DNA from: Phycisphaerae bacterium
GTDB taxonomy: Bacteria; Planctomycetota; Phycisphaerae; UBA1845
DNA: 64,000 bases
Assembly (NCBI GenBank): GCA_029260075.1
Contig: JAJDDY010000027.1
Coordinates: 126,086-190,085 of the forward strand
Direction of reading: 5' to 3'
Below the pieces are notes generated by a model. It saw nothing but the letters and a program-made list of their open reading frames with translations. It was not told the origin of the DNA and made no database searches. Made by a program: the position numbers and the translations under genes. Positions 31,118-42,681 of the stretch are shown piece after piece; the stretch's first letter is position 1, and every line of letters starts with the position of its first letter.

Positions 31118-32884
31118 TCAGGATTCCCGCACCAAGCACACGTCCTGCACACTTCGTCCGCAGATGCGGGAGACGCCGATCGTGGCGTTTGGTTTTTCGG
31201 GGTCGCCGGGCGTCCAGCAGATGAGTCGATCGCGTAGGTCGTTGGTGGCGATGACCAAATCAGCGGCCACCTCGACGCGGCGCAGGGTCTGTCCGCCGGC
31301 TTCGTAGCGGCAGGAGAAGCTGTCGCCAAGCACGCGGGCGTGAACGTGGAGCGACGTATCGCTGTAGACCAAGCGGCGTACGCCGTGCGTCGACAAGTGC
31401 CAGATGGATTCCACCGCCCGCTGCGCGCCCGTGTGAATACGCTCCACACGGTCCGCAGAGTCCGAAGACCAGAACAGCACATCGCCGTCGCGGTTGCCGG
31501 CGAACAGGCCATCGGTTGTCGGGCAAAGGGCGGAAACCGTCGACACGCTGCCGGTGAAGACGCGGGACGGTTCGTCACCGACGTCATCGACGCGAACGCA
31601 ATGTACGTTGTCGTCGATGCTGCAATACAAATTGCCGTCGAGCATCGCCACGCCGCGCACGGCCTTGGCGTTCTTGGTTTTTGCTGAAAGGCGGTACCGA
31701 ACGTCGCCCGGCTTGTTGACGTTCCATTCGCACAACCCGAGTTCGGAATGGGACGCGAAGACCCGATCGCCCACAGCCACCACCGCGTTGAACCCGCCTT
31801 GCACCGACGGCGTGCCCTCGACGACGAGCGTCAGGTCCGGCGTTGACGCGTCTAGCGGCAGGCGATAGACCCCTGTCGACGCACCGAGCCAGAGCATCGG
31901 CGTGCCATCTGTTGCCACTGCGGATTGCGTCGATCGAACGCCACCGACTCCCCCCGCGATTTGTACACGTCGAGCCGGTTCGTCGAACGTCGACGGGTCG
32001 AAGAAGAGCAATTCGTCACCGGCGGCTACGACAACCCAGCGGGTGCGATCAGCCACCGGCTCGTTGGCGAAGAGCGCCGCGTAAAGCTCGCCGCGTTCGC
32101 GCTCTGCAAACGTCTTGACCAAATCGGGCAGGGCCACGTCGGGCGATGCGGAGGCCATGTCGCGAAGTCGCCCGAGCAATTGACCGAGGTGATCCAAGTG
32201 TTCAGCCTGAGCGCGATCGAGCGCCTGGCGCACTTCGTGCTCGGCCTCATGCACAGCCCGTCGGCGCGATGCATCGGCGTGGGCGTCTTGCACGTGTCTA
32301 AGCGTCTGCGAGTCGAACCGGACTTCGGGCGCACCCTCCAAGACCATGCCGGCAGCAAACAGCGGCGCCTGAACACCATCCGCAAGTGCGTTCGAAACCT
32401 GTTGAGCAACACGCCCGCCGACAAGCTCTGCACCGTCGTGCGCCGCCGCCACCTTGGCCAGCGCGGTCCGCAGCGCGGGTTCTAAGTATCGGGTGAGCCC
32501 CTTGGCTTGGGCTACGCGGTGACTACCCACTACGGATTTGGAAAAAGAAACGAGTTCGCCCCGCTCCGGCATTACACTGACGTGCAATGTTCCAACGGCT
32601 TTGCACGAGAAGCGATCGCGCGTGACGACGCCGTCTTCGTCGAAACTAATCTCGATCGGTGTGACGCGGAAGAACAGCACGTCTTCGACGTCGGCGCCAT
32701 CCACGACGCCGCCAGCTTCGACGACCACTTGGTCACCTGTCGATCGGCGTACGAGCGCGGCCCACTGAGCCGGAAGATCGAGCGAGCGAGAAAGCAGTCC
32801 GAACAGTTCCGACGCCTCCACGTGCAACGCCACGTTGGACGCCTCTTGAAAAAACAGACGTGGGTCAAACTTGCCCGAGGTCAT
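31118..32884 (-). CDS. Hypothetical protein with C-terminal beta-propeller-like region
   Basis: 588-aa ORF with coding-like composition. No family recognised. Confidence 0.55.
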   Translation of the reverse strand: MTSGKFDPRLFFQEASNVALHVEASELFGLLSRSLDLPAQWAALVRRSTGDQVVVEAGGVVDGADVEDVLFFRVTPIEISFDEDGVVTRDRFSCKAVGTLHVSVMPERGELVSFSKSVVGSHRVAQAKGLTRYLEPALRTALAKVAAAHDGAELVGGRVAQQVSNALADGVQAPLFAAGMVLEGAPEVRFDSQTLRHVQDAHADASRRRAVHEAEHEVRQALDRAQAEHLDHLGQLLGRLRDMASASPDVALPDLVKTFAERERGELYAALFANEPVADRTRWVVVAAGDELLFFDPSTFDEPARRVQIAGGVGGVRSTQSAVATDGTPMLWLGASTGVYRLPLDASTPDLTLVVEGTPSVQGGFNAVVAVGDRVFASHSELGLCEWNVNKPGDVRYRLSAKTKNAKAVRGVAMLDGNLYCSIDDNVHCVRVDDVGDEPSRVFTGSVSTVSALCPTTDGLFAGNRDGDVLFWSSDSADRVERIHTGAQRAVESIWHLSTHGVRRLVYSDTSLHVHARVLGDSFSCRYEAGGQTLRRVEVAADLVIATNDLRDRLICWTPGDPEKPNATIGVSRICGRSVQDVCLVRES

Positions 32885-33088: not shown

Positions 33089-34222
33089 TTACGCCAGCCC
33101 TCGCCCCGCGAACTGCTCGAAACGCAAGAGGTCAGCCTGAGCGACTGACGGGGCCGAGTTCTCGATCACACTCATTATATCCTTCATGGCGATCGATCGC
33201 GCATCACCGCCCGAAATCGCCTCCATAAAGGGTAATTGTGCGGAACGCTGCGCGATATTTTTGATATCCGCCCCAGTGTAGCCGTTCAACCGGTCGCAAA
33301 GGGCGCCGAAATCGACATCATCGGACAATGGTCGATCGCCGAAATAGATCTCCAGCAAGCGAAAGACGGCCGGGGCGTCCGGGACGCCGACGTAAATCTT
33401 CGAGTCCAACCGACCGGGGCGGAGCATGGCTTCATCCAACATCCAGGGTCGATTCGTCGCGCCCACGAACAACAGCGGACGGTCCGACTGACGATCGAAA
33501 CCCTCAAGCTCCTGAAGGATTTGCGGGACGACGCGCTGCATGACCGTGGAGCCACCGCTCTTTCGCTTGGGCACCAGCGCCTCTGTCTCATCGAGGAAGA
33601 TGACGGCGGTGTCTTCTGCCTTGGCTGTTTCGAAAAGCTTGCGAATGTTTTGCTCGGCTTCGCCGACCCACTTGCTAAGCATTTGCGCCGGGCTGACCAC
33701 GAAGAACGTCGCGTCGATTTCGTGGGCGATTGCTTTGGCGATCATCGTCTTGCCCGTGCCGGGCGGGCCGTAGAGCAATACACCCCCGCCGCTGTTGATG
33801 CCATATTTCTGGGCCAATTCGCGGTGGGCGAAGGGGTAGATCATCTTGAGGCGAATCTCCTCCTTCACGTCTTCAAGACCGGCGATGTCGTCGAAGCCGA
33901 TATTGGGCTTGTCCTTAACGATCCAATCGGAAGCGTCGGCGCCGGAGTCGTCTTCCTTTTCGCGCTGCCCGCCGGACCCACCGCGCCGCCCCTTCCGGCC
34001 GCCGGTGTGAAGGCGATCGCAATCCTTCGCCAGATCAATCAACTCGGTCGCGAGCTCTTCATGCTGACGCCGGGCTTCACCCGTCTTGGCGCCCTCGGCC
34101 ATCTCAAGCATGCACTCAGCCGCATCGACCAAATACGACTTGGCCGCAAGGTAGTCCCCACCCTTGTAGGCGTCGACACCCTTGCTCTTTAGTCGTTCAA
34201 ATGTTGTGAAAGAAACTGTCAT
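33089..34222 (-). CDS. Vps4-like AAA+ ATPase (meiotic clade) with N-terminal MIT domain
   Basis: N-terminal three-helix MIT-like region (KGVDAYKGGDYLAAKSYLVDAAECMLEMAEG...). Walker A GPPGTGKT, Walker B IFLDE. C-terminal helix DLLRFEQFAGRG closely resembles Vps4 C-terminal LLKQEQFTRDFG. Confidence 0.85.
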   Translation of the reverse strand: MTVSFTTFERLKSKGVDAYKGGDYLAAKSYLVDAAECMLEMAEGAKTGEARRQHEELATELIDLAKDCDRLHTGGRKGRRGGSGGQREKEDDSGADASDWIVKDKPNIGFDDIAGLEDVKEEIRLKMIYPFAHRELAQKYGINSGGGVLLYGPPGTGKTMIAKAIAHEIDATFFVVSPAQMLSKWVGEAEQNIRKLFETAKAEDTAVIFLDETEALVPKRKSGGSTVMQRVVPQILQELEGFDRQSDRPLLFVGATNRPWMLDEAMLRPGRLDSKIYVGVPDAPAVFRLLEIYFGDRPLSDDVDFGALCDRLNGYTGADIKNIAQRSAQLPFMEAISGGDARSIAMKDIMSVIENSAPSVAQADLLRFEQFAGRGLA

Positions 34223-34279: not shown

Positions 34280-34888
34280 CTACTTCTGCTTCTCACCCTG
34301 CTGTTTCAGTGAATTCAACTCCGCACGCAAGCCAGCGAGTTTTCCTAGTTCGCGTTGATGCTCGGCCTCCGTCTCGGCTTCGATCATGCGGTCGATTTCT
34401 TCATCGCCCAAGGCCTCGCCCGCCTTGCCCATTTCTGCATCCTGCGACGCGATGTCTTCGACGCTGTCGAGGAACATGTCCATGCGTTCCTCCATAGTCT
34501 GCGACTGCGCCATCGCCTTTTCCCAATCGCCCTGCGTCTTGACGAGGTCGGTCTCGCCGAAGAGGCGGCCGATTTCGGTGGCCATAATGCCCATGGCCTG
34601 TGCGAAGTCTGCCGACGCCTCCGCCTGACGTTTGATCAAGAGTGCGTTCTTCACCGACAGGAGTTGCCGTTCGAGCATTTTTCGGATCGTGGCCGTCTTC
34701 TTGAGGGAGTTGCGAATGAACTGATATTGGCTGGTGTCGCCAATCTTCTTGGCGTGGCGGGCGTTCTTGATGAATTCGTCTTGAAACTTGCCCTGCTCAC
34801 GAATGGACTTCTCGATCCGACGGATACCCTGCCGAATCTTGATGTCCCGCTCGATGCGGCGTTCTTCCGGTGATTTGAATAGTCCCAT
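34280..34888 (-). CDS. Snf7/ESCRT-III-like protein (basic N-terminal helical hairpin, acidic C-terminus with MIM-like motif)
   Basis: 202 aa, MGLF start. Basic N half, acidic C half. C-terminal EEIDRMIEAE...LGKLAGLRAELNSLK resembles CHMP MIM1. Adjacent to the MIT-AAA ATPase. Confidence 0.75.
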   Translation of the reverse strand: MGLFKSPEERRIERDIKIRQGIRRIEKSIREQGKFQDEFIKNARHAKKIGDTSQYQFIRNSLKKTATIRKMLERQLLSVKNALLIKRQAEASADFAQAMGIMATEIGRLFGETDLVKTQGDWEKAMAQSQTMEERMDMFLDSVEDIASQDAEMGKAGEALGDEEIDRMIEAETEAEHQRELGKLAGLRAELNSLKQQGEKQK

Positions 34889-35115: not shown

Positions 35116-35322
35116 CTAATAATACTCCCGCTCAGGGATCAACAGCCACAGGATGATGTAGATGAGGATTCCCGGAAACGCCGCGGAAAAAATCGACGCC
35201 AAGACATAGACGACCCGCACAACGGTCGGATCGATCCCGGCGTATTCTCCGAGACCGCCGCACACACCGGCGACGTTCCGATCAATAACGCTTCTTCGTA
35301 ATGGTTGAGAGAGATTTCCCAT
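35116..35322 (-). CDS. PspC-domain small membrane protein
   Basis: RRSVIDRNVAGVCGGLGEYAGIDPTVVRVVYV + TM is a canonical PspC domain. Start trimmed; the track ORF N-terminus is translation of a repeat element. Confidence 0.7.
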   Translation of the reverse strand: MGNLSQPLRRSVIDRNVAGVCGGLGEYAGIDPTVVRVVYVLASIFSAAFPGILIYIILWLLIPEREYY

Positions 35323-35375
35323 CGCTACATCCGCTTCGCCTGTTTTTCCTAAGGGCGTGTTCGAGACGCCATTTG

Positions 35376-35445
35376 CCGAGCCGCGCCCGTAAGGAAGCTG
35401 TCGGAGATCGTGGGCGAAGACCGCTCCCTTACGATCGCGGCTCCG
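35376..35445. repeat. Family-A repeat, copy 6 (core; 5' of pspC-like gene; spacer nearly identical to copy 5)
   Basis: CCGAGCCGCGCCCGTAAGGAAGCTGTCGGAGATCGTGGGCGAAGACCGCTCCCTTACGATCGCGGCTCCG. Confidence 0.85.
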
Positions 35446-35545
35446 TTCGACGAAACCCTTCATAGGCACCCTCTAAGTCTTGAGCCTGCCGTCGGTCGGG
35501 TTCATTGATCGCACTATGTCTTTGATCTACGCATTGACGAATCCA

Positions 35546-36151
35546 TCATCCCTCCGGCGTCGCGTGTCGCTCGCGTACGGTGCGGTCGGCTTCGTCGAAT
35601 CCTTCCGTCGCGTCAACTATGACACCGGTATCCATCTTATCCCATACGTTGAGCACGCTCTGACCGGCTGACGTCATACCGTCTGCACCCTCGTCCACGC
35701 CGGCGCCGATCGAAAGAATTTCGTCCAAACGCTCGTGATAGATTTCCGCGCGAACCGAGTCCGACTCGATCAGATTGCTGATGCGCAAGAGATCGGTCTC
35801 GCTGACCAAGCCGAGCTTGTTGGACTGCCCGGCGCGGTCCGCGTTTTCGCGCAGCATACGCAAACGCGACACGGTAAGCATTTCCTTGCTACGAATGTTA
35901 AGCTGCCGGGCGAGCATGAGTTGCTCGGTCGTGCGCATCTCGAATTCCTGAGCGAGAACGCGCCGCAATTCGGGCGTCTTTTCCGTCGAACCTCGATCGA
36001 ACAGCTTCTGCTTGTCGGCTGCGATTTTCTCGACCTTGCGCAGAAGCTGGTTGCGATCCTTCTCTAGCAACAACTCCTGCCGGCGCAACTCAGCCCTCGT
36101 CATTTGCGACAGGGGCTTCTTGCGTTTAGTTAGCCATTCAAGAAACGCCAT
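35546..36151 (-). CDS. Snf7/ESCRT-III-like protein (second paralogue)
   Basis: 201 aa. Basic coiled-coil N half (LRRQELLLEKDRNQLLRKVEKIAADKQKL) and acidic C half, similar in architecture to 34280-34888. Confidence 0.65.
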   Translation of the reverse strand: MAFLEWLTKRKKPLSQMTRAELRRQELLLEKDRNQLLRKVEKIAADKQKLFDRGSTEKTPELRRVLAQEFEMRTTEQLMLARQLNIRSKEMLTVSRLRMLRENADRAGQSNKLGLVSETDLLRISNLIESDSVRAEIYHERLDEILSIGAGVDEGADGMTSAGQSVLNVWDKMDTGVIVDATEGFDEADRTVRERHATPEG

Positions 36152-36232: not shown

Positions 36233-37702
36233 TCATGTCGGCTCGGCATCAGCGCGACGCGATTGATCCGCATCGTGATCTGACGACGGCGGTTCCTCGA
36301 CCGGATCTCTTGCAACCCCACGCTCGGTCGCCACTGGTGGTATCGGCGTCGCAGCCTGCTTCGGTGCACTCGATGCGTCAGCCACCGCCGGCGCGTCGTC
36401 GGCTTCAAACTCCTTGAGTATCGCCAGCTCGTCGTCGCTAATCAGCGTCTCTTCGATTCCGGTCTCCAAACTTCCAACCAACTCCGCGTCAGCTTGGAGC
36501 GTTTCGAGCATTTCCTCAGCCTTCACGGCGTTCTCAGTCAGCGTTTCCGTATCGGGGAGGCTGGCCATTTCGCCCTGCTGAATGAGCGTGAGGTTGTGGA
36601 TGTCCGTGCTGATGATGTCGATCTGTTTGTTGAGCATCGCAGCCGTCGTGTTCTGCCGGCCGATGTCCTTACGCAATTGGGCGAGTTGTGCGGCGATGCG
36701 ACGTTTGGGCACCTGCGACTTGGCGGCTTTGCCCTGCTCGAACAGGTTGGCCTCTTTCTTTTCCAACTGCCCGATGTCTTCATAGATGCGGTCGCGTCGC
36801 TGAGCGAGGAGCGCGCGGCGTTCAGCCAGCACGTTGATCTTCTCCCCCTCGTCGCCCTCGCTACCGAACAACTGCTTGATGCGATCGATGACATTCATCG
36901 ATTTTCTCTCCTGCGACGCCACCGGGGCGCCTCGAAACAATAGAAGTTCACCGTCTTTGTCCGCCACGTGCAGCTCTTGATCGGCCGACGCCAGTTCACG
37001 CATTCCGTCGCGTACGATGTGCTGCGGGAGACCCATCTTCCGCGCCACCGACGACGCGGACAGACCGCCCGTGAGCAAATCGGCGCTATGCTCCTCAACG
37101 ACGCGGCGGACACGCTGCGTCTTCTCCGTCGTGCCTTCCGGGTCGAACAGCTTGAGCAGACGCGCGTCCGTGTGTTCAGCCGACGAACTCGTTTGCCATC
37201 CGCCGTGCCCGTCCGGTTCCACAAGCACGACCGACACGTTAGGCATATCGATCTTGGCCGCCTTGGCTTCGTCGGTAAAACCCGTGGGGCTGCACACGCC
37301 GACAACCTGCGGCACGCGGGCATCGGCGGTCAATCGCCGAACATGATCGACGAGTTCACCAAGCCCGATCGCAGGGGCGTCGCCATCATCGTCGGACGCA
37401 AAGTGGCTCAGCGGCGACAACACCGTCGCTATCGCTGCTCCGGTCTCACGTTTCGTAATCAGGAAATGCCGTTCGTAACCGCGTAGGACGATTCGGCGAT
37501 TGGCCGGCAGCGACTTGAGCCTCTCGCGGTCGTAGATTCGATTGGACGCCAGCAGAGCACGCACGCGGTCACTCTGATCATTGCGCACCAACTGCCAGAT
37601 CGACCCGCGAAGCTGTTTCCCCTTCGCGGCTTCGAAATTCGTCAACACGCCCGACAGAAAGTCGGTCTCTAGTTGAAAGGCTCGCTGAGCGTCTGTTGTC
37701 AT
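36233..37702 (-). CDS. Fusion protein: unknown ~265-aa N-terminal domain with wHTH-like segment + C-terminal Snf7/ESCRT-III-like domain
   Basis: C-terminal 220 aa (from MNVIDRIKQLFG) repeat the Snf7-like basic/acidic helical pattern. No stop separates it from the N-terminal domain. Confidence 0.65.
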   Translation of the reverse strand: MTTDAQRAFQLETDFLSGVLTNFEAAKGKQLRGSIWQLVRNDQSDRVRALLASNRIYDRERLKSLPANRRIVLRGYERHFLITKRETGAAIATVLSPLSHFASDDDGDAPAIGLGELVDHVRRLTADARVPQVVGVCSPTGFTDEAKAAKIDMPNVSVVLVEPDGHGGWQTSSSAEHTDARLLKLFDPEGTTEKTQRVRRVVEEHSADLLTGGLSASSVARKMGLPQHIVRDGMRELASADQELHVADKDGELLLFRGAPVASQERKSMNVIDRIKQLFGSEGDEGEKINVLAERRALLAQRRDRIYEDIGQLEKKEANLFEQGKAAKSQVPKRRIAAQLAQLRKDIGRQNTTAAMLNKQIDIISTDIHNLTLIQQGEMASLPDTETLTENAVKAEEMLETLQADAELVGSLETGIEETLISDDELAILKEFEADDAPAVADASSAPKQAATPIPPVATERGVARDPVEEPPSSDHDADQSRRADAEPT

Positions 37703-37731: not shown

Positions 37732-37998
37732 TTACGCAAGCGGCGCACCGCAATGTCCACAATACCTGGCGCCGCGGCGACGCTCGATGCGTCCACATCC
37801 CTCTCGCGTGCAGACCGGTTCGTTCGACGCCACCGGCTTGGCCATGTCGGGCAATCGATCGCGACGAAACCCAAACAAGTTCGCAAGCCCCGAGACCAAC
37901 CACCCGATCGTTCGCCCGATCAGATAGATCACTCCGAAGAGAAATGCGGCGCATCCGAACAGGAGCACGAAAATAATCAGCAGGCTCTCGCCGTGCAT
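37732..37998 (-). CDS. Small membrane protein with C-terminal zinc ribbon
   Basis: TM (LLIIFVLLFGCAAFLFGVIYLIG) + CTREGCG...CGHCG. Sits between the kinase and the ESCRT-like cluster. Confidence 0.45.
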   Translation of the reverse strand: MHGESLLIIFVLLFGCAAFLFGVIYLIGRTIGWLVSGLANLFGFRRDRLPDMAKPVASNEPVCTREGCGRIERRRGARYCGHCGAPLA

Positions 37999-38013
37999 TA
38001 CCGGTCCCCAGTG

Positions 38014-39057
38014 TCATTGAGTAACGCGTCGTAGATCGTGACCGCACAAAATACAAAACCGATCGTTCGCGTGGACGCTGGCGCTGCACTCCGAACACGC
38101 CAACACGCGATCGACCACCTGCCGTCCGCAGTAGATACAAAACTGATCGTCGTCATGAACCGACCGCCCACAACCCACGCACTTCGTACCGCACGGCACT
38201 GCCACCGGCGGGGGTGGTGGTGGTGGTGGCACGGACGTGTGATCATCAGGCGAAAGCGCCGCGAGCATCTCGCGCGTCGAAGCAAACCGCCGATCCAACC
38301 GCGTGTAGCAGCGACGGAATACGTCGTCCAAGTACGGCGGCACGTCGCGACGTAGTGAGCCGGGCGTGTCTCCGCCCTGCGGTCGCTCGCCAGTTAGCAT
38401 TTCGCACAAAAGCACGCCGCAGGAGTACAGATCGCTCCGTCCGTCGAGCGGATGACCCGCCTTCTGTTCCGGCGACATGTACGCCAGCGTGCCGGCGATG
38501 CTCCGCCCCTCTTCCGCCGCCATGCTTCCGCTCTGCATAATCGACTGCGTCGTGACCCCGCCCACATGACCAAGCCCGAAATCCGTCACCCGCACGGACT
38601 TCTCCGTGATCGTCGCCAAGTCCGACGGCGGAAGGTGCAACAGGATGTTCGCCGGCTTGATGTCGCGGTGAATCACTCCGCCATCATGGGCCACGGTAAG
38701 CGCCGACAACACACCGCGCATGATCGTCAACGCCGCCGAGATCGGCATCGCTGACTTGTATTCGTCGATAATCTCGCGCACCGACGGACCGTTCACGTAT
38801 TCCATGATGAGGTAAGGCGGCTCGGCGTATGGATCCAAGTCGATCGCGCGAACGATGTTGTGGTGTTTGAGGCCGTGAACAGCCACACCCTCGCGCTGCA
38901 GGTTGCGCACGTATTGCGGATCGGTCGGAATCTTGATGGCGACAAGATCGTCGAACACATGGTGCCGCGCACGCCAGACCACACCGAAGCTTCCAGCGCC
39001 AACACGCGTCTCAAGCACGTAGTTGTTGATCCGATCACCTTCGTGTTGGGCTGACAT
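38014..39057 (-). CDS. Ser/Thr protein kinase with poly-Pro linker and two C-terminal zinc ribbons
   Basis: GxGxxG (VGAGSFGVV), VAIK, HRDIKPANILL, DFG, SPE motifs. PPPPPPPP. CxxC...CxxC x2. Confidence 0.88.
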   Translation of the reverse strand: MSAQHEGDRINNYVLETRVGAGSFGVVWRARHHVFDDLVAIKIPTDPQYVRNLQREGVAVHGLKHHNIVRAIDLDPYAEPPYLIMEYVNGPSVREIIDEYKSAMPISAALTIMRGVLSALTVAHDGGVIHRDIKPANILLHLPPSDLATITEKSVRVTDFGLGHVGGVTTQSIMQSGSMAAEEGRSIAGTLAYMSPEQKAGHPLDGRSDLYSCGVLLCEMLTGERPQGGDTPGSLRRDVPPYLDDVFRRCYTRLDRRFASTREMLAALSPDDHTSVPPPPPPPPVAVPCGTKCVGCGRSVHDDDQFCIYCGRQVVDRVLACSECSASVHANDRFCILCGHDLRRVTQ

Positions 39058-39095
39058 AGTCCAAGATCCTCTCGACGCGGCTGAGGCTGGGCGAG

Positions 39096-39500
39096 CTATC
39101 TCATCTCCAAACGCTCAGCCTGATACTCGCAAACCTTAAAATTATAAGCAGCCGCAGAGAGAAATCCAAGAACAAGCACCATCCACGTCAAGGCGTTGTG
39201 CCCACTGAGCCCCCCGATCAGCACGATAGCCACGATGGCATCCACCAGCGACAACCCGACCAGCAGGAGTGCGGCGCCGACGTTGGATTCTTTCGATACG
39301 ACCCACGTCGTTACGAAAAACGACACCCAAGGCACCATGAGCACGATACCAATCCATACGAGCACGTATTTCACCGTCACCCAAATGGTTTCGAGCGCTT
39401 CCGGGTGCTTCCAGAACCATATCACCGCACCGGCGCCCGAGACGACAAGAATCGCGGTGAGCACCTTAGCGCCCACGTATTGTCCGATAGCCGAAAACAT
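39096..39500 (-). CDS. Hypothetical multi-TM membrane protein
   Basis: 4 predicted TM helices. ATG with AAGGA SD; the track ORF starts at an upstream TTG. Confidence 0.55.
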   Translation of the reverse strand: MFSAIGQYVGAKVLTAILVVSGAGAVIWFWKHPEALETIWVTVKYVLVWIGIVLMVPWVSFFVTTWVVSKESNVGAALLLVGLSLVDAIVAIVLIGGLSGHNALTWMVLVLGFLSAAAYNFKVCEYQAERLEMR

Positions 39501-39885
39501 GAATTCGCCATCCTTACGCAAGAGATCGTTCGCAATCGAGAAGCGACGTGCGAACCTACCGATACCCTACCGCGCCCCACGTCGCACGGCGATTACAAAG
39601 ACCGACTCCCTCTATAATTCGCGTTTTGCGCCGGTTTATCCGCGTAGGAGCGGCGGACAACCCCCAGACGCGTGGTCGGGGCAACTGGATCCGGGGGGCG
39701 CGCCGCGACGCTGTCGCTACACACAGGAATCCCAAACGGCGCAGCCATGGCACGCCAAGACTGGCCGACGACAAGGTATCGCATGAGTGCTAACTCACGA
39801 GCAGGCGGGTCACCAACGAAGCCCAGTATCGCACAAGAATCTCGTACGCTTCGCGCAACAACCTAGTGCTCTGGCACAGCTAGAA

Positions 39886-40013: not shown

Positions 40014-41426
40014 TTAGTCGAAGCTGGAAACCAGAACGATGCGGTGTTTTCCCGAAGCCTTAGCCTGATAGAGAGATCTGTCGGCGACCCGGATTAGTGA
40101 CTCGGGGTCCGGAATGTCCGGCGTGCTGACGCACGCGATGCCCATGCTGAACGTTGTTCGGACCTCAGGAATTCGCTCGGCAAGTCGCCGGGCGAATGCC
40201 TCGGCGATGCGTTCGGCAAGCGTGTGGGCGCTCGCGCCATCAGTCTGCGGGAGGATCGCGACGAACTCGTCACCGCCGAACCGGGCGGCCATGTCCGCAG
40301 CACGTAACTCGCCGTCGATGGTCGAAGCCGCGAGCACCAACACATCGTCGCCGACTTGATGGCCAAAGGCGTCGTTGACGGCCTTGAAATCGTCAAGGTC
40401 AATCATGATACATGACAACTCGGTGTCATATCTCTTGGCTTCGGAGAAACGGCGATTGAGCATGTCATTCAAATGGCGGCGATTGAACAGACCGGTCAGC
40501 GGATCACGGGATGCCAGTTCCCGAAGTTGCCGCGTGCGCTGCATCACGCGACGCTCAAGGTCCGCGTTCATCGTAACCAGTCTATCGTGCGTCTCCTGAT
40601 GCAAGTCTGCCATCGCATTGAACGCATTGACCAGTTTCCCAACCTCGTCGCTACGCCGCGTCTTGCTTCTTATGTCTAGGTCGCCACGGGAGAACTGATG
40701 CATGGCGTCCGCCAATCCATCCAGCGGGGCCACAATACGTCGCACGAGAAAAAAGCCCAAGGGGATCACGATCATCGTGGCGAGCAGCGCGATACCGATC
40801 ACCAGATCCAATCGGCTGGCGATGCTGCGAGACCAGCCACTCGCCCCCATCCCCATGCGCACGTAACCCACCAAACGTGTTGTTCCTCCGCCGGGATGAT
40901 CAAGCTCATCCTCGGTCGCCTCGTGCGCGATTCGTGTAGTGATCGGGTAGACGACATCAATGAGCGCCGCACCGCTTTCGGGTTGCCAAAGGACCGGCTG
41001 ACCGGGAACGGGAATGCCACGGTGCATTCTTGCCGCCACCGCATTGAGCACACGTATATGACGACTCTGGGCGCTGGCGTACACGTGACCTTCAGCGTCC
41101 GTGATGATGACGTACTTCACCGGATCACCGTTGGCGACTCTGCGTGCCAAGCGCTTGAGGTTCGAAGGATCTCGTGTCGACCATTGAGACTCCGCCGCCT
41201 TGGACAGCAGACCAGCTAGCTGTACCAAATGCGACCGATGTTGATCGCGAACCACAGTCGCACTTGTCTTGAGAATGTAACCGGCGACGGCAGCGGCGAC
41301 CGAAAGCGTCAGCAAGACAACCAGGACTGTCGCCTTGAACTGGAGTGTCTGCGCAGCGCCGAGAAGACCGCGCCCGGCGGTCGACAAAGTGCTCCGAACC
41401 GTATCGTCTGTGTACTCGTCTGCCAT
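40014..41426 (-). CDS. Diguanylate cyclase (TM sensor-HAMP-GGDEF)
   Basis: HAMP region, then GG(D/E)EF-domain motifs (RFGGDEF, DDFKAVND). Start trimmed to the ATG preceding the first TM; the upstream part of the track ORF overlaps the neighbouring gene. Confidence 0.85.
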   Translation of the reverse strand: MADEYTDDTVRSTLSTAGRGLLGAAQTLQFKATVLVVLLTLSVAAAVAGYILKTSATVVRDQHRSHLVQLAGLLSKAAESQWSTRDPSNLKRLARRVANGDPVKYVIITDAEGHVYASAQSRHIRVLNAVAARMHRGIPVPGQPVLWQPESGAALIDVVYPITTRIAHEATEDELDHPGGGTTRLVGYVRMGMGASGWSRSIASRLDLVIGIALLATMIVIPLGFFLVRRIVAPLDGLADAMHQFSRGDLDIRSKTRRSDEVGKLVNAFNAMADLHQETHDRLVTMNADLERRVMQRTRQLRELASRDPLTGLFNRRHLNDMLNRRFSEAKRYDTELSCIMIDLDDFKAVNDAFGHQVGDDVLVLAASTIDGELRAADMAARFGGDEFVAILPQTDGASAHTLAERIAEAFARRLAERIPEVRTTFSMGIACVSTPDIPDPESLIRVADRSLYQAKASGKHRIVLVSSFD

Positions 41427-41625
41427 CCTATCCTCTACGGCGCGGCCCCCCGTCACGCGCTCGCTTATCCATAGCGCGATACGAACAAGCCTGTTCCGGT
41501 AACGTCTGTATCGACAACGGGCAAGTGGAACTGAATCGTCTAATGCAACGGGATTCTGGATAGGAAGTGCTGCCGGGCCCATGTTATCGGGCCACGATAC
41601 TAGACGGCGGGCGCGGGCGGAGTGA

Positions 41626-42681
41626 TTAGCTGCCGAGAAAACTTCGATCAGGTATTTGTGATTCCAGGTGTGGCGTTGGAGACGCCGCGTCAGTGCCACC
41701 CTGGGCCCGCGACCGAAGGGTGTCGAGCGCCTCGCGCACTTCTGAGGCCATACGAGCGTTGGGAAACTCACGAATCAGTTCGACCCCGGTGCCCAGCGCA
41801 TCCTGCCATCGTTTTTCGTTCACGGCAAAACGAAATTGCACGCCAAGTTGCAACAGTTTGTCTTTGAAGACGTCACGCGCCGAGGAACGCAGCGCCTCCG
41901 CCTCGGCTGCAGAAAGGTATTGATCGAGTTCACGAAGAATATCGATCGCCTGATCTGTATCGTTTCGTCTAACCGCTTCCTGCCACGACACAAGCAACGC
42001 CTGCTTGTGATCGTCTTTGAGCGATTCCATCCGATCACGCAACGCCAGCACACGCGCGTTGTCGGGCAGGAGACCGAGGAGGCGATCGATCTCATGGCCG
42101 GCACGAGTCCATTCGTACGATTGGAAATGTCCCTCGATCATCTCTATGGCTTCGCGAAGACGTACTTCCATCGCACCATTTCGGGCCGCGTCCAACTGTT
42201 CGCGAAACTGTTCGGCCTCTTCCTTGCAACCGAACCGAACTTCCATATCGTCGATTAGACTCAGCGCTCGCTCCCAGTGCTCGCCCGCCAAATCCTCGCG
42301 GATTACCGTGCGAAGCATGTCCAAGTCTTGTTCGCGATGGGTGAGCGACTTGGCTGCATCGGAGATGGCCGTGTTCTCGCCGATCAGCTCCAGCACCGCA
42401 TTCTGTTGAACGATGCTGTCGTGCAGGTCGCGCAGGGTTCCGAATTGTCGCGTGATCGTCGACTCGGTTTTCAGGATCAAGGGCACAAGCGTGAGAAACA
42501 TGATTGACAGGAACGAAACAAAGCCGCCGGCTGCAATTAGCCAAACGCCGCCGGACGATTCGGACGAACCGTATCCCACGGCGCCCATGCCGATTAGAAT
42601 CGCGCCGCCGATCATGGCGCACACGCACACTGCGGTCTGAAGCCAACGAAGCTGTGCGAATCGTCCTGGAGACATGGCCAT
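41626..42681 (-). CDS. Hypothetical membrane protein with 2-3 TM helices and a large helical cytoplasmic domain
   Basis: ATG start. TM segments near the N-terminus. Helical repeat-like remainder. Confidence 0.55.
   Translation of the reverse strand: MAMSPGRFAQLRWLQTAVCVCAMIGGAILIGMGAVGYGSSESSGGVWLIAAGGFVSFLSIMFLTLVPLILKTESTITRQFGTLRDLHDSIVQQNAVLELIGENTAISDAAKSLTHREQDLDMLRTVIREDLAGEHWERALSLIDDMEVRFGCKEEAEQFREQLDAARNGAMEVRLREAIEMIEGHFQSYEWTRAGHEIDRLLGLLPDNARVLALRDRMESLKDDHKQALLVSWQEAVRRNDTDQAIDILRELDQYLSAAEAEALRSSARDVFKDKLLQLGVQFRFAVNEKRWQDALGTGVELIREFPNARMASEVREALDTLRSRAQGGTDAASPTPHLESQIPDRSFLGS

Follow-up and report, generated by a model that had tools for sequence, protein, structure and literature searches.

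A conserved gene of the Phycisphaerae joins a winged helix to an ESCRT-III-like module and may encode two nested products

The DNA analysed here, referred to as the window, is a stretch of 64,000 nucleotides from a Phycisphaerae bacterium (GenBank assembly GCA_029260075.1, contig JAJDDY010000027.1, positions 126,086 to 190,085). [quoted passage not shown] The overall explanation that we regard as probable, though by no means assured, is that this is a hybrid ESCRT-III gene with two nested products, the longer of which would serve as a nucleator, anchor or cap. A conserved internal start site suggests that the gene makes the 489-residue hybrid and, in addition, a predicted free ESCRT-III subunit of 221 residues.

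The gene is one ATG-initiated open reading frame (ORF) with no internal stop. A first-pass annotation, made from the letters of the sequence, had described an N-terminal part of about 265 residues running without an intervening stop into a Snf7-like module, and both the continuity and the boundary held up. The segment MNVIDRIKQLFGSEGDE / MNVIDRIKQLFG, with which the module was said to start, begins at residue 269, directly after SQERKS, in the same frame and with no stop between, and the AlphaFold2 model of the protein has a low-confidence linker at residues 258-270. More than 300 full-length relatives (466-525 residues) keep the ORF intact, and wherever the source of these is named it is Phycisphaerae or Planctomycetota. 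In a database of 5.8 billion proteins, the best 120 of 389 relatives had 466-507 residues and covered 88-100% of the query, while 425 relatives were present among 1.8 billion cluster representatives, many of them full length (about 450-525 residues); the distant full-length relatives in the latter search have the same architecture at only 22-29% identity in the N-terminal part. A full-length match was also present in 80 representative species genomes. Those named below the level of phylum are Phycisphaerae, save one Planctomycetales, and the remainder are labelled Planctomycetota or simply “bacterium”. Because full-length relatives occur both in protein databases and in the genomes of 80 species, the fusion is genuine and conserved and is not an artefact of assembly. 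The relatives are annotated as hypothetical in all sources, and none of those listed carries a Pfam domain. AlphaFold2 modelled the whole protein with a mean pLDDT (predicted local distance difference test) of 78 from a 30-sequence alignment, and the N-terminal part (residues 1-262) with a pLDDT of 93 and a predicted template modelling score of 0.86 from an 83-sequence alignment. The parts of the gene are as follows.

36233..37702, - strand: full ORF, 489 amino acids, long isoform (ORF, full-length relatives, AlphaFold2 model)
37148..37702, - strand: residues 1-185, α/β domain, weakly restriction-endonuclease-like (PD-(D/E)xK fold)
36932..37135, - strand: residues 190-257, predicted winged helix (AlphaFold2 model)
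36899..36931, - strand: residues 258-268, flexible linker bearing the Shine-Dalgarno-like element (pLDDT below 50 at 263-268)
36908..36912, - strand: AGGAG, Shine-Dalgarno-like, 9 nucleotides 5' of the internal ATG (sequence)
36896..36898, - strand: internal ATG (Met269), predicted start of the 221-residue short isoform (83 loci, starts of unfused homologues)
36395..36898, - strand: residues 269-436, putative ESCRT-III (Snf7/Vps20-like) module
36233..36394, - strand: residues 437-489 and the stop codon, sequence-variable, disordered tail rich in Pro, Ala and Glu (pLDDT 32-41)
36236..36259, - strand: residues 482-489, conserved tail end R-x-A-D-[PA]-E-[PA]-[TS] (alignment columns 501-531)

The start analysis comprised 83 loci, namely those of the 80 species, the window and two distant relatives, with the distant loci L092 and L093 read separately. 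Codon 269 is capable of serving as a start in all 83 (81 ATG, one GTG and one TTG), and Met269 is more than 90% conserved despite its place in a disordered linker. In the window, the DNA reads CAGGAGAGAAAATCG ATG at this point, and the GTG locus (L043) and the TTG locus (L046) are both preceded by CAGGAGAA. When orthologous sites were located with a regular expression, a Shine-Dalgarno-like motif was present at positions -18 to -5 in 73 of 75, as compared with a background of 15% among 8188 internal in-frame ATGs. The same kind of motif precedes the gene's own first ATG in 23% of the orthologues (there is none in the window) and the starts of five neighbouring genes in 12-52% of cases, and it was seen at none of the few PspC and TM141 starts that could be located.

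The element is independent of the encoded amino acid sequence, as GGAG is kept through changes of both residue and codon phase: QE[KR] is encoded with CAG GAG, H-G-R as CAT GGG AGA, G-E as GGA GAA, G-G as GGA GGA and K-G-R as AAA GGA AGG. In the distant branch, GGAGG is formed by Gly-Gly codons in three of four genes, some 5-8 nucleotides before the ATG, and the fourth gene (L091) has GAGGAAGG from Glu-Glu-Gly codons. The compared proteins are 51-71% identical, and synonymous sites are therefore expected to be largely randomised. However, GAG stands at codon 265 in 60 of 62 loci, versus 63% elsewhere in the same ORFs (P 2e-10); Gln264 is CAG in 37 of 37 loci, versus 74% elsewhere; and codon 264, at which 12 different amino acids are encoded, ends in G in 59 of 62 loci. 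The simplest reading is that the conserved GGAG and start codon would act together as a functional internal ribosome-binding site, and since GGAG persists across residues and phases while synonymous positions are constrained, two nested products are predicted. At the level of sequence, then, the gene has what characterises a nested in-frame isoform, a conserved internal start with a ribosome-binding site of its own. Two points weigh on the other side: the binomial P values of the codon test ignore shared ancestry; and the generally low use of Shine-Dalgarno motifs at the gene starts of this locus makes their role in the lineage uncertain.

The gene might instead make the 489-residue hybrid only, in which case the GGAG/ATG pair would be a relic of an ancestral gene boundary, a pause in translation that would let the two halves fold separately, or a consequence of amino acid constraint on the linker (Q-E-K/R...M). 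No relative has a stop codon between the two halves, the close family keeps Glu265 and Met269 at the amino acid level, and most genuine starts in the locus lack a Shine-Dalgarno motif, so that initiation driven by one may matter little in this lineage. The persistence of GGAG and the synonymous constraint described above argue against such a single product, as do the only two replacements of Met269, both of which (GTG and TTG) are start codons, and the retention of the element in a branch that is 22-29% identical N-terminally, which is too far for a neutral relic. We therefore give a single product a small, though appreciable, chance of being correct, and prefer the reading with two nested products.

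The position of the internal start also coincides with the start of free-standing proteins. Many unfused homologues, 190-237 residues long, match residues 269-455 only and begin the match at their own residue 1-6, their aligned start falling exactly at the position of Met269. The module therefore exists unfused, which answers, for the C-terminal part, the question raised in the first-pass annotation of whether the two parts occur as separate genes elsewhere. For the N-terminal domain, no stand-alone homologue was identified among the 1.8 billion cluster representatives, and the database matches confined to it, with scores of 240-340 bits, have the look of gene calls that were cut short. A 275-residue protein encoded upstream of one unfused homologue (P0227) was considered as a separate N-terminal domain and turned out to be unrelated, a membrane and coiled-coil protein. 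The wider spacing before the next gene at L053 was considered as a case of fission; the fusion is intact there, and an extra gene has been inserted after it.

The unfused homologues have varied neighbours: membrane proteins at L001, phage-like runs of small genes at L004 and L087 and, repeatedly and on unrelated contigs, Band_7 proteins (L087 and L089). At L089, a Band_7 domain fused to a double zinc ribbon is encoded near the unfused module homologue. The homologues at L004 (1294..1986) and L087 (398..982) lie in tightly packed, same-strand strings of small unannotated genes, the neighbours in which are DNA-ligase-like, AcrVA2-like, RtcB, Band_7 and NAD synthase proteins, giving them a phage-like look. 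As to the unfused module in phages, tblastn of P0208 against phage genomes gave no match, and neither did PHROGs.

The identification of residues 269-436 as Snf7-like, proposed from the sequence in the first-pass annotation, was supported by profile-profile comparison, predicted topology, an N-terminal motif and the charge pattern, without support from Pfam. In the AlphaFold2 model, an amphipathic α0 (271-280, ...IDRIKQLFG) is followed by α1 (285-326), α2/3 (330-379), α4 (386-416) and α5 (421-436). This is the ESCRT-III topology, a hairpin of α1 and α2/3, here with arms of about 40 and 50 residues, and then α4 and α5. The N-terminal α0/LFG-type motif is present as well, with M-N-V-I-D-R-I-K-Q-L-F-G aligning to K-L-F-G of CHMP4B, and only the predicted short isoform would have α0 exposed at its N-terminus. 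Averaged over 30 sequences, the net charge is +0.4 for α1, +3.6 for α2/3, -7.3 for α4 and -5.1 for α5, that is, the split between a basic part (+4, α1-3) and an acidic part (-12, α4-5) that is typical of ESCRT-III.

For profile comparison, six eukaryotic ESCRT-III proteins and E. coli PspA served as references; their sequences were verified in Pfam as full-length family members (Snf7 E values of 1e-16 to 1e-58; PspA_IM30 E 9e-49). A 113-sequence profile of the C-terminal module aligned with the six Snf7 references in hhalign at a probability of 65% (E 5.9e-5, score 37.7) over 151 collinear columns, which begin at the LFG motif, take in the hairpin-tip motif and extend as far as the acidic end. 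Reversed profiles scored 17, and 30 block-shuffles gave a mean of 16.1 (standard deviation 3.4, maximum 23.4), which places the real score about 6 standard deviations above the shuffles. CHMP6/Vps20 was the best single reference of the six (E 1.1e-3 over 142 columns). A profile search of the PDB gave CdvB in register (E 0.21), and searches of PDB sequences, whether with the protein alone or with profiles of its family, returned designed coiled coils and chance matches only. No relationship to PspA/IM30 (PF04012) was found in Pfam, and hhalign against E. coli PspA gave E 0.15-0.29 over 13-25 columns.

Several results count against an ESCRT-III assignment: no Snf7 (PF03357) match was obtained in Pfam at E<0.1 with either the whole 489-residue protein or its C-terminal half; NCBIfam did not recognise Snf7 in the 489-residue protein; among the homologues, weak Snf7 Pfam matches were limited to one of 31 unfused (E 0.0045) and one of 83 fused proteins (E 0.02); and the hhalign probability for Snf7 is moderate. 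The missing Snf7 match, together with weak matches of several members to coiled-coil Pfam families (PUMA_CC, DUF489), would fit a C-terminal part that is a generic oligomerisation hairpin of a nuclease-fold/winged-helix factor and is no homologue of ESCRT-III. We find this quite improbable in view of the following: the collinear Snf7 profile match that starts at the LFG motif and scores more than twice the reversed controls; the alignment of the hairpin-tip motif G-K-x-x-x-S...RRR-x-A-x-Q-L with the Snf7 loop; the charge asymmetry; and the presence of two more ESCRT-III-like paralogues and an AAA ATPase within the same conserved locus (see below). With moderate to good confidence, the module may be placed within the ESCRT-III superfamily, on its Snf7 side, as a divergent member. 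Beyond it, the disordered tail ends in the window protein with R-R-A-D-A-E-P-T; this conserved tail end is absent from the unfused homologues and may be a short linear peptide for binding a partner.

The N-terminal part had been described in the first-pass annotation as being of unknown fold, which needs amendment, as residues 1-185 weakly resemble the restriction-endonuclease fold. Weak Mrr_cat Pfam matches occur in two of 83 family members, and the top structural match is YqgP's N-terminal domain, a metal-sensing domain that is not a nuclease. Residues E12, D42, D58, P66, S138, G141, F142, E162, P163, G167, G168 and W169 are conserved in the domain. The canonical PD-(D/E)xK motif is not recognisable: P66-A-N-R-R stands at the start of strand 70-79 and K-R-x-T-G-x-A in strand 83-94, the positions having been assigned by secondary-structure register. 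As P66-A-N-R-R and K-R-x-T-G occupy the places of PD and (D/E)xK, the domain is probably an inactive derivative of a nuclease fold. Six acidic residues are conserved (E12, D42, D58, E162, D187 and E189) and may allow the binding of metal.

The segment that had been read as a recognition helix, GGLSASSVARKMGLPQHIVRDGMRELASADQ / LSASSVARKMGLPQHIVRDGMRELA, corresponds to residues 213-237 and does fall inside a predicted winged helix (190-257), with helices at 191-204 and 206-211, a strand at 213-215, helices at 216-223 and 227-240 and a wing at 244-257, in keeping with the H1-strand-H2-H3-wing fold of winged helix-turn-helix domains. Foldseek against the PDB confirmed the winged helix only. Its net charge is about zero, conserved polar residues are few, and no conserved basic recognition helix was found in the family sequences. 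Because of the neutral charge and the lack of such a helix, binding of protein, as by the winged helices of ESCRT-II, seems to us more likely than binding of DNA, and the earlier suggestion of a DNA-binding moiety finds little support.

That suggestion can be put in a stronger form, in which the whole N-terminal half is directed at DNA, as a nuclease or DNA binder with a DNA-binding winged helix, either linking the polymer to the nucleoid, much as CdvA binds DNA, or acting in defence against foreign DNA. The restriction-endonuclease-like fold with its weak Mrr_cat matches, the six conserved acidic residues and the fact that DNA binding is common among winged helices all speak for it. Nevertheless, we think it rather unlikely, given: the replaced catalytic positions; the non-nuclease YqgP domain as the top structural match; the uncharged winged helix; PADLOC and PHROGs scans of the 489-residue protein and its halves, which gave nothing meaningful; and a locus that is vertically conserved and syntenic across the class, unlike a mobile defence island.

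The genes around the hybrid gene lie on one strand and in one order across the species loci. They are listed here from upstream to downstream with synteny counts out of 80 species loci, many of which end at contig edges.

41626..42681, - strand: 351-residue coiled-coil membrane protein (43/80)
40014..41771, - strand: GGDEF protein, listed GTG start at 41771 (54/80)
within 37732..39521, - strand: 141-residue multi-pass membrane protein, preceding the kinase (73/80)
38014..39057, - strand: Ser/Thr kinase, 347 residues, with a C-terminal double zinc ribbon (77/80)
37732..37998, - strand: 88-residue protein with a transmembrane segment and a zinc ribbon (small zinc-ribbon protein in 40/80, the closer half of the species)
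36233..37702, - strand: the hybrid gene, 489 residues (80/80)
35546..36151, - strand: 201-residue paralogue of the ESCRT-III-like module, next gene downstream (73/80)
35116..35469, - strand: PspC-domain membrane protein (PF04024, E 1.5e-22; 54/80)
34280..34888, - strand: 202-residue ESCRT-III-like protein, MGLFKSPEERR... (66/80)
33089..34222, - strand: single-domain classical AAA ATPase (AAA, E 9e-40; 47/80)
31118..32884, - strand: 588-residue protein, SPFH/Band_7 domain at the N-terminus and probably a β-propeller (PF01145, 26 bits versus a cutoff of 23.6; 38/80)

The hybrid gene is thus part of a cluster, as had been noted, yet it does not open it: the membrane protein, the kinase and, in about half of the species, the zinc-ribbon protein are encoded upstream on the same strand and in synteny. 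The conserved kinase suggests phosphoregulation of the system. Among the distant relatives, a gene of the 201-residue type stays downstream of the hybrid gene, the kinase lies upstream in three of four, and a second gene of about 200 residues is present in two. Two start sites in the list need comment. The listed GGDEF ORF overlaps the upstream 351-residue ORF (41626..42681) by 146 nucleotides within the region 40014..42681, and its true start is probably further downstream. The PspC ORF is listed from a GTG, and an ATG lies two codons downstream (MPMKG...), which makes the real start uncertain; in roughly one species locus out of four, the two small ESCRT-III-like genes have no PspC between them.

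BLASTP of the C-terminal module against the two small downstream proteins found nothing, and profile comparison was therefore needed. With hhalign, the 201-residue protein matched the module profile at a probability of 87% (E 3.8e-6) over 160 collinear columns from residue 1. The 202-residue protein matched the Snf7 references weakly (E 2e-3 over 59 columns; reversed control score 12). The latter surpasses every other gene of the locus in conservation, with 74-91% identity among the 66 species loci and 2752 relatives, the best 120 of which are all at least 83% identical and have no Pfam domain. Its C-terminal amphipathic helix (LAGLRAELNSLKQQ; C-terminus ELGKLAGLRAELNSLKQQ) resembles an MIM1 motif and, on this resemblance, could bind the ATPase's N-terminal domain.

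The ATPase has a Vps4-like pore loop, SKWVGE (SKWVGEAE), 35% identity to VPS4A and a marginal Vps4_C match (22.4 bits versus a cutoff of 21.3). The NCBIfam models for CDC48, PAN and CdvC score nearly equally, all below their cutoffs. Its N-terminal 75 residues are helical and TPR/MIT-like, followed by a Gly/Arg-rich linker at 75-90. A classical ESCRT pairing is made less secure by its best PDB matches, which are Cdc48/p97 D2 domains, by an RPGRLD motif as in Cdc48/PAN, and by its N-terminus, in which no MIT domain was detected; the protein is not demonstrably an orthologue of Vps4 and should not be called Vps4.

Taken together, the gene and its neighbours suggest a mechanism in which: the short isoform would be a free ESCRT-III subunit, its amphipathic N-terminus unblocked like those of the unfused homologues and the 201-residue paralogue; the long isoform would be rarer than the short one (its own start has no Shine-Dalgarno motif in the window and a similar one in fewer than a quarter of orthologues); through its ESCRT-III module, the long isoform would enter polymers formed at the cytoplasmic membrane together with the short isoform and both paralogous proteins, and would act as their nucleator, anchor or cap; its winged helix and nuclease-fold-like domain would fasten such a polymer to a site or partner; the AAA ATPase encoded nearby would remodel it or take it apart; and the upstream Ser/Thr kinase would regulate the system. 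An adaptor or nucleator role had been raised in the first-pass annotation and is plausible; that it comes by analogy alone should be held against it. The system may serve to repair the envelope, to form vesicles or to divide the cell.

Reviews describe planctomycetes as dividing in the absence of FtsZ, through a mechanism that is unknown (PMC12673574). The boldest extension would see in this locus the long-sought apparatus with which the Phycisphaerae divide or sever membranes independently of FtsZ, a bacterial counterpart of archaeal Cdv, a proposal that we judge improbable. If it were true, the division locus would consist of the kinase, the hybrid gene, the two ESCRT-III-like paralogues, PspC, the AAA ATPase and the SPFH protein, with the long isoform as a site-selecting nucleator (CdvA- or CHMP7-like) and the short isoform as the polymer subunit.

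Recent reviews hold that only archaea and eukaryotes have ESCRT-III in combination with a Vps4-type ATPase (PMC10936438), and describe Vps4-like ATPases as apparently absent from bacteria (PMC7619361). Our literature search found no paper joining Planctomycetota with both ESCRT and Vps4, and none joining Phycisphaerae with “bacterial ESCRT”. Already known are the bacterial ESCRT-III superfamily (PspA/Vipp1), occasional Snf7-clade proteins and hybrids of winged helices with ESCRT-III. The family itself, its extension with a nuclease-fold-like domain and a winged helix, the nested start and the class-wide locus of the Phycisphaerae were not in the literature searched. Their interest would lie in: a class-wide syntenic locus with three modules that are Snf7-like rather than PspA-like and a classical AAA ATPase; and a nested isoform that, if made as predicted, suggests a simple route to a nucleator and a polymer subunit from one gene. 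The internal Shine-Dalgarno/ATG element, along with cultured Phycisphaera strains, provides a direct experimental handle on the predicted short isoform.

Among known bacterial systems, Snf7-clade proteins occur occasionally, some with AAA+ partners, according to a survey (PMC11237479). The present family shares with them and with PspA/Vipp1 the ESCRT-III superfamily, the association with PspC and SPFH/Band_7 proteins and the occasional AAA+ linkage. It has no profile similarity to PspA and is closer to Snf7, and neither the extension with a nuclease-fold-like domain and a winged helix nor a nested start is among the architectures in the parts of the survey consulted.

The crenarchaeal CdvA/CdvB/CdvC system, likewise from an FtsZ-less group, unites a set of ESCRT-III paralogues with an AAA ATPase in a single locus; CdvB is an ESCRT-III protein bearing a winged helix, and CdvA is an adaptor that positions the polymer, parallel to the role proposed for the long isoform. 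However, the winged helix of CdvB is C-terminal, while that of the 489-residue protein is N-terminal to the module; CdvA, a PRC-barrel protein encoded separately, does not resemble the N-terminal domain described here; and the ATPase of the locus is not clearly an orthologue of CdvC/Vps4.

Nested in-frame isoforms are familiar in bacteria from CheA-L/CheA-S, the forms of IF2 and long and short ClpB. As in these, the reading frame contains a second start, preceded by a putative ribosome-binding site of its own, and the short form would lack the N-terminal domain and co-assemble with the long one; in contrast to these, the short product is here predicted from comparative sequence alone. In eukaryotes, a winged helix of the ESCRT-II subunit Vps25 contacts α1 of the nucleating ESCRT-III subunit, Vps20/CHMP6, which is also the reference closest to the module among the six. 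The present protein differs in carrying the winged helix and the ESCRT-III module on one polypeptide, without an ESCRT-II complex.

Extra globular domains on ESCRT-III proteins had been thought unusual in the first-pass annotation, but hybrids with winged helices are known, both in CHMP7/Chm7 and in CdvB with its C-terminal winged helix. We know of no nested internal start in CHMP7. No sequence relationship between the N-terminal parts of CHMP7 and of the 489-residue protein was detectable, and the two hybrids therefore probably arose independently. CHMP7 is a site-specific ESCRT-III nucleator controlled by the kinase CDK1 (PMC8324300); the 489-residue gene likewise has a Ser/Thr kinase as its conserved upstream neighbour. 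Like CHMP7/Chm7, the protein has an N-terminal globular region of about 230-265 residues with a winged helix, a C-terminal Snf7-type module and a similar overall size. Unlike CHMP7, which has tandem winged helices and a membrane-binding insert, it has one winged helix that follows a nuclease-fold-like domain, and it is therefore analogous in layout to CHMP7-type hybrids without being a member of that group. It would thus represent a bacterial ESCRT-III hybrid with a layout parallel to that of CHMP7, or of ESCRT-II together with Vps20.

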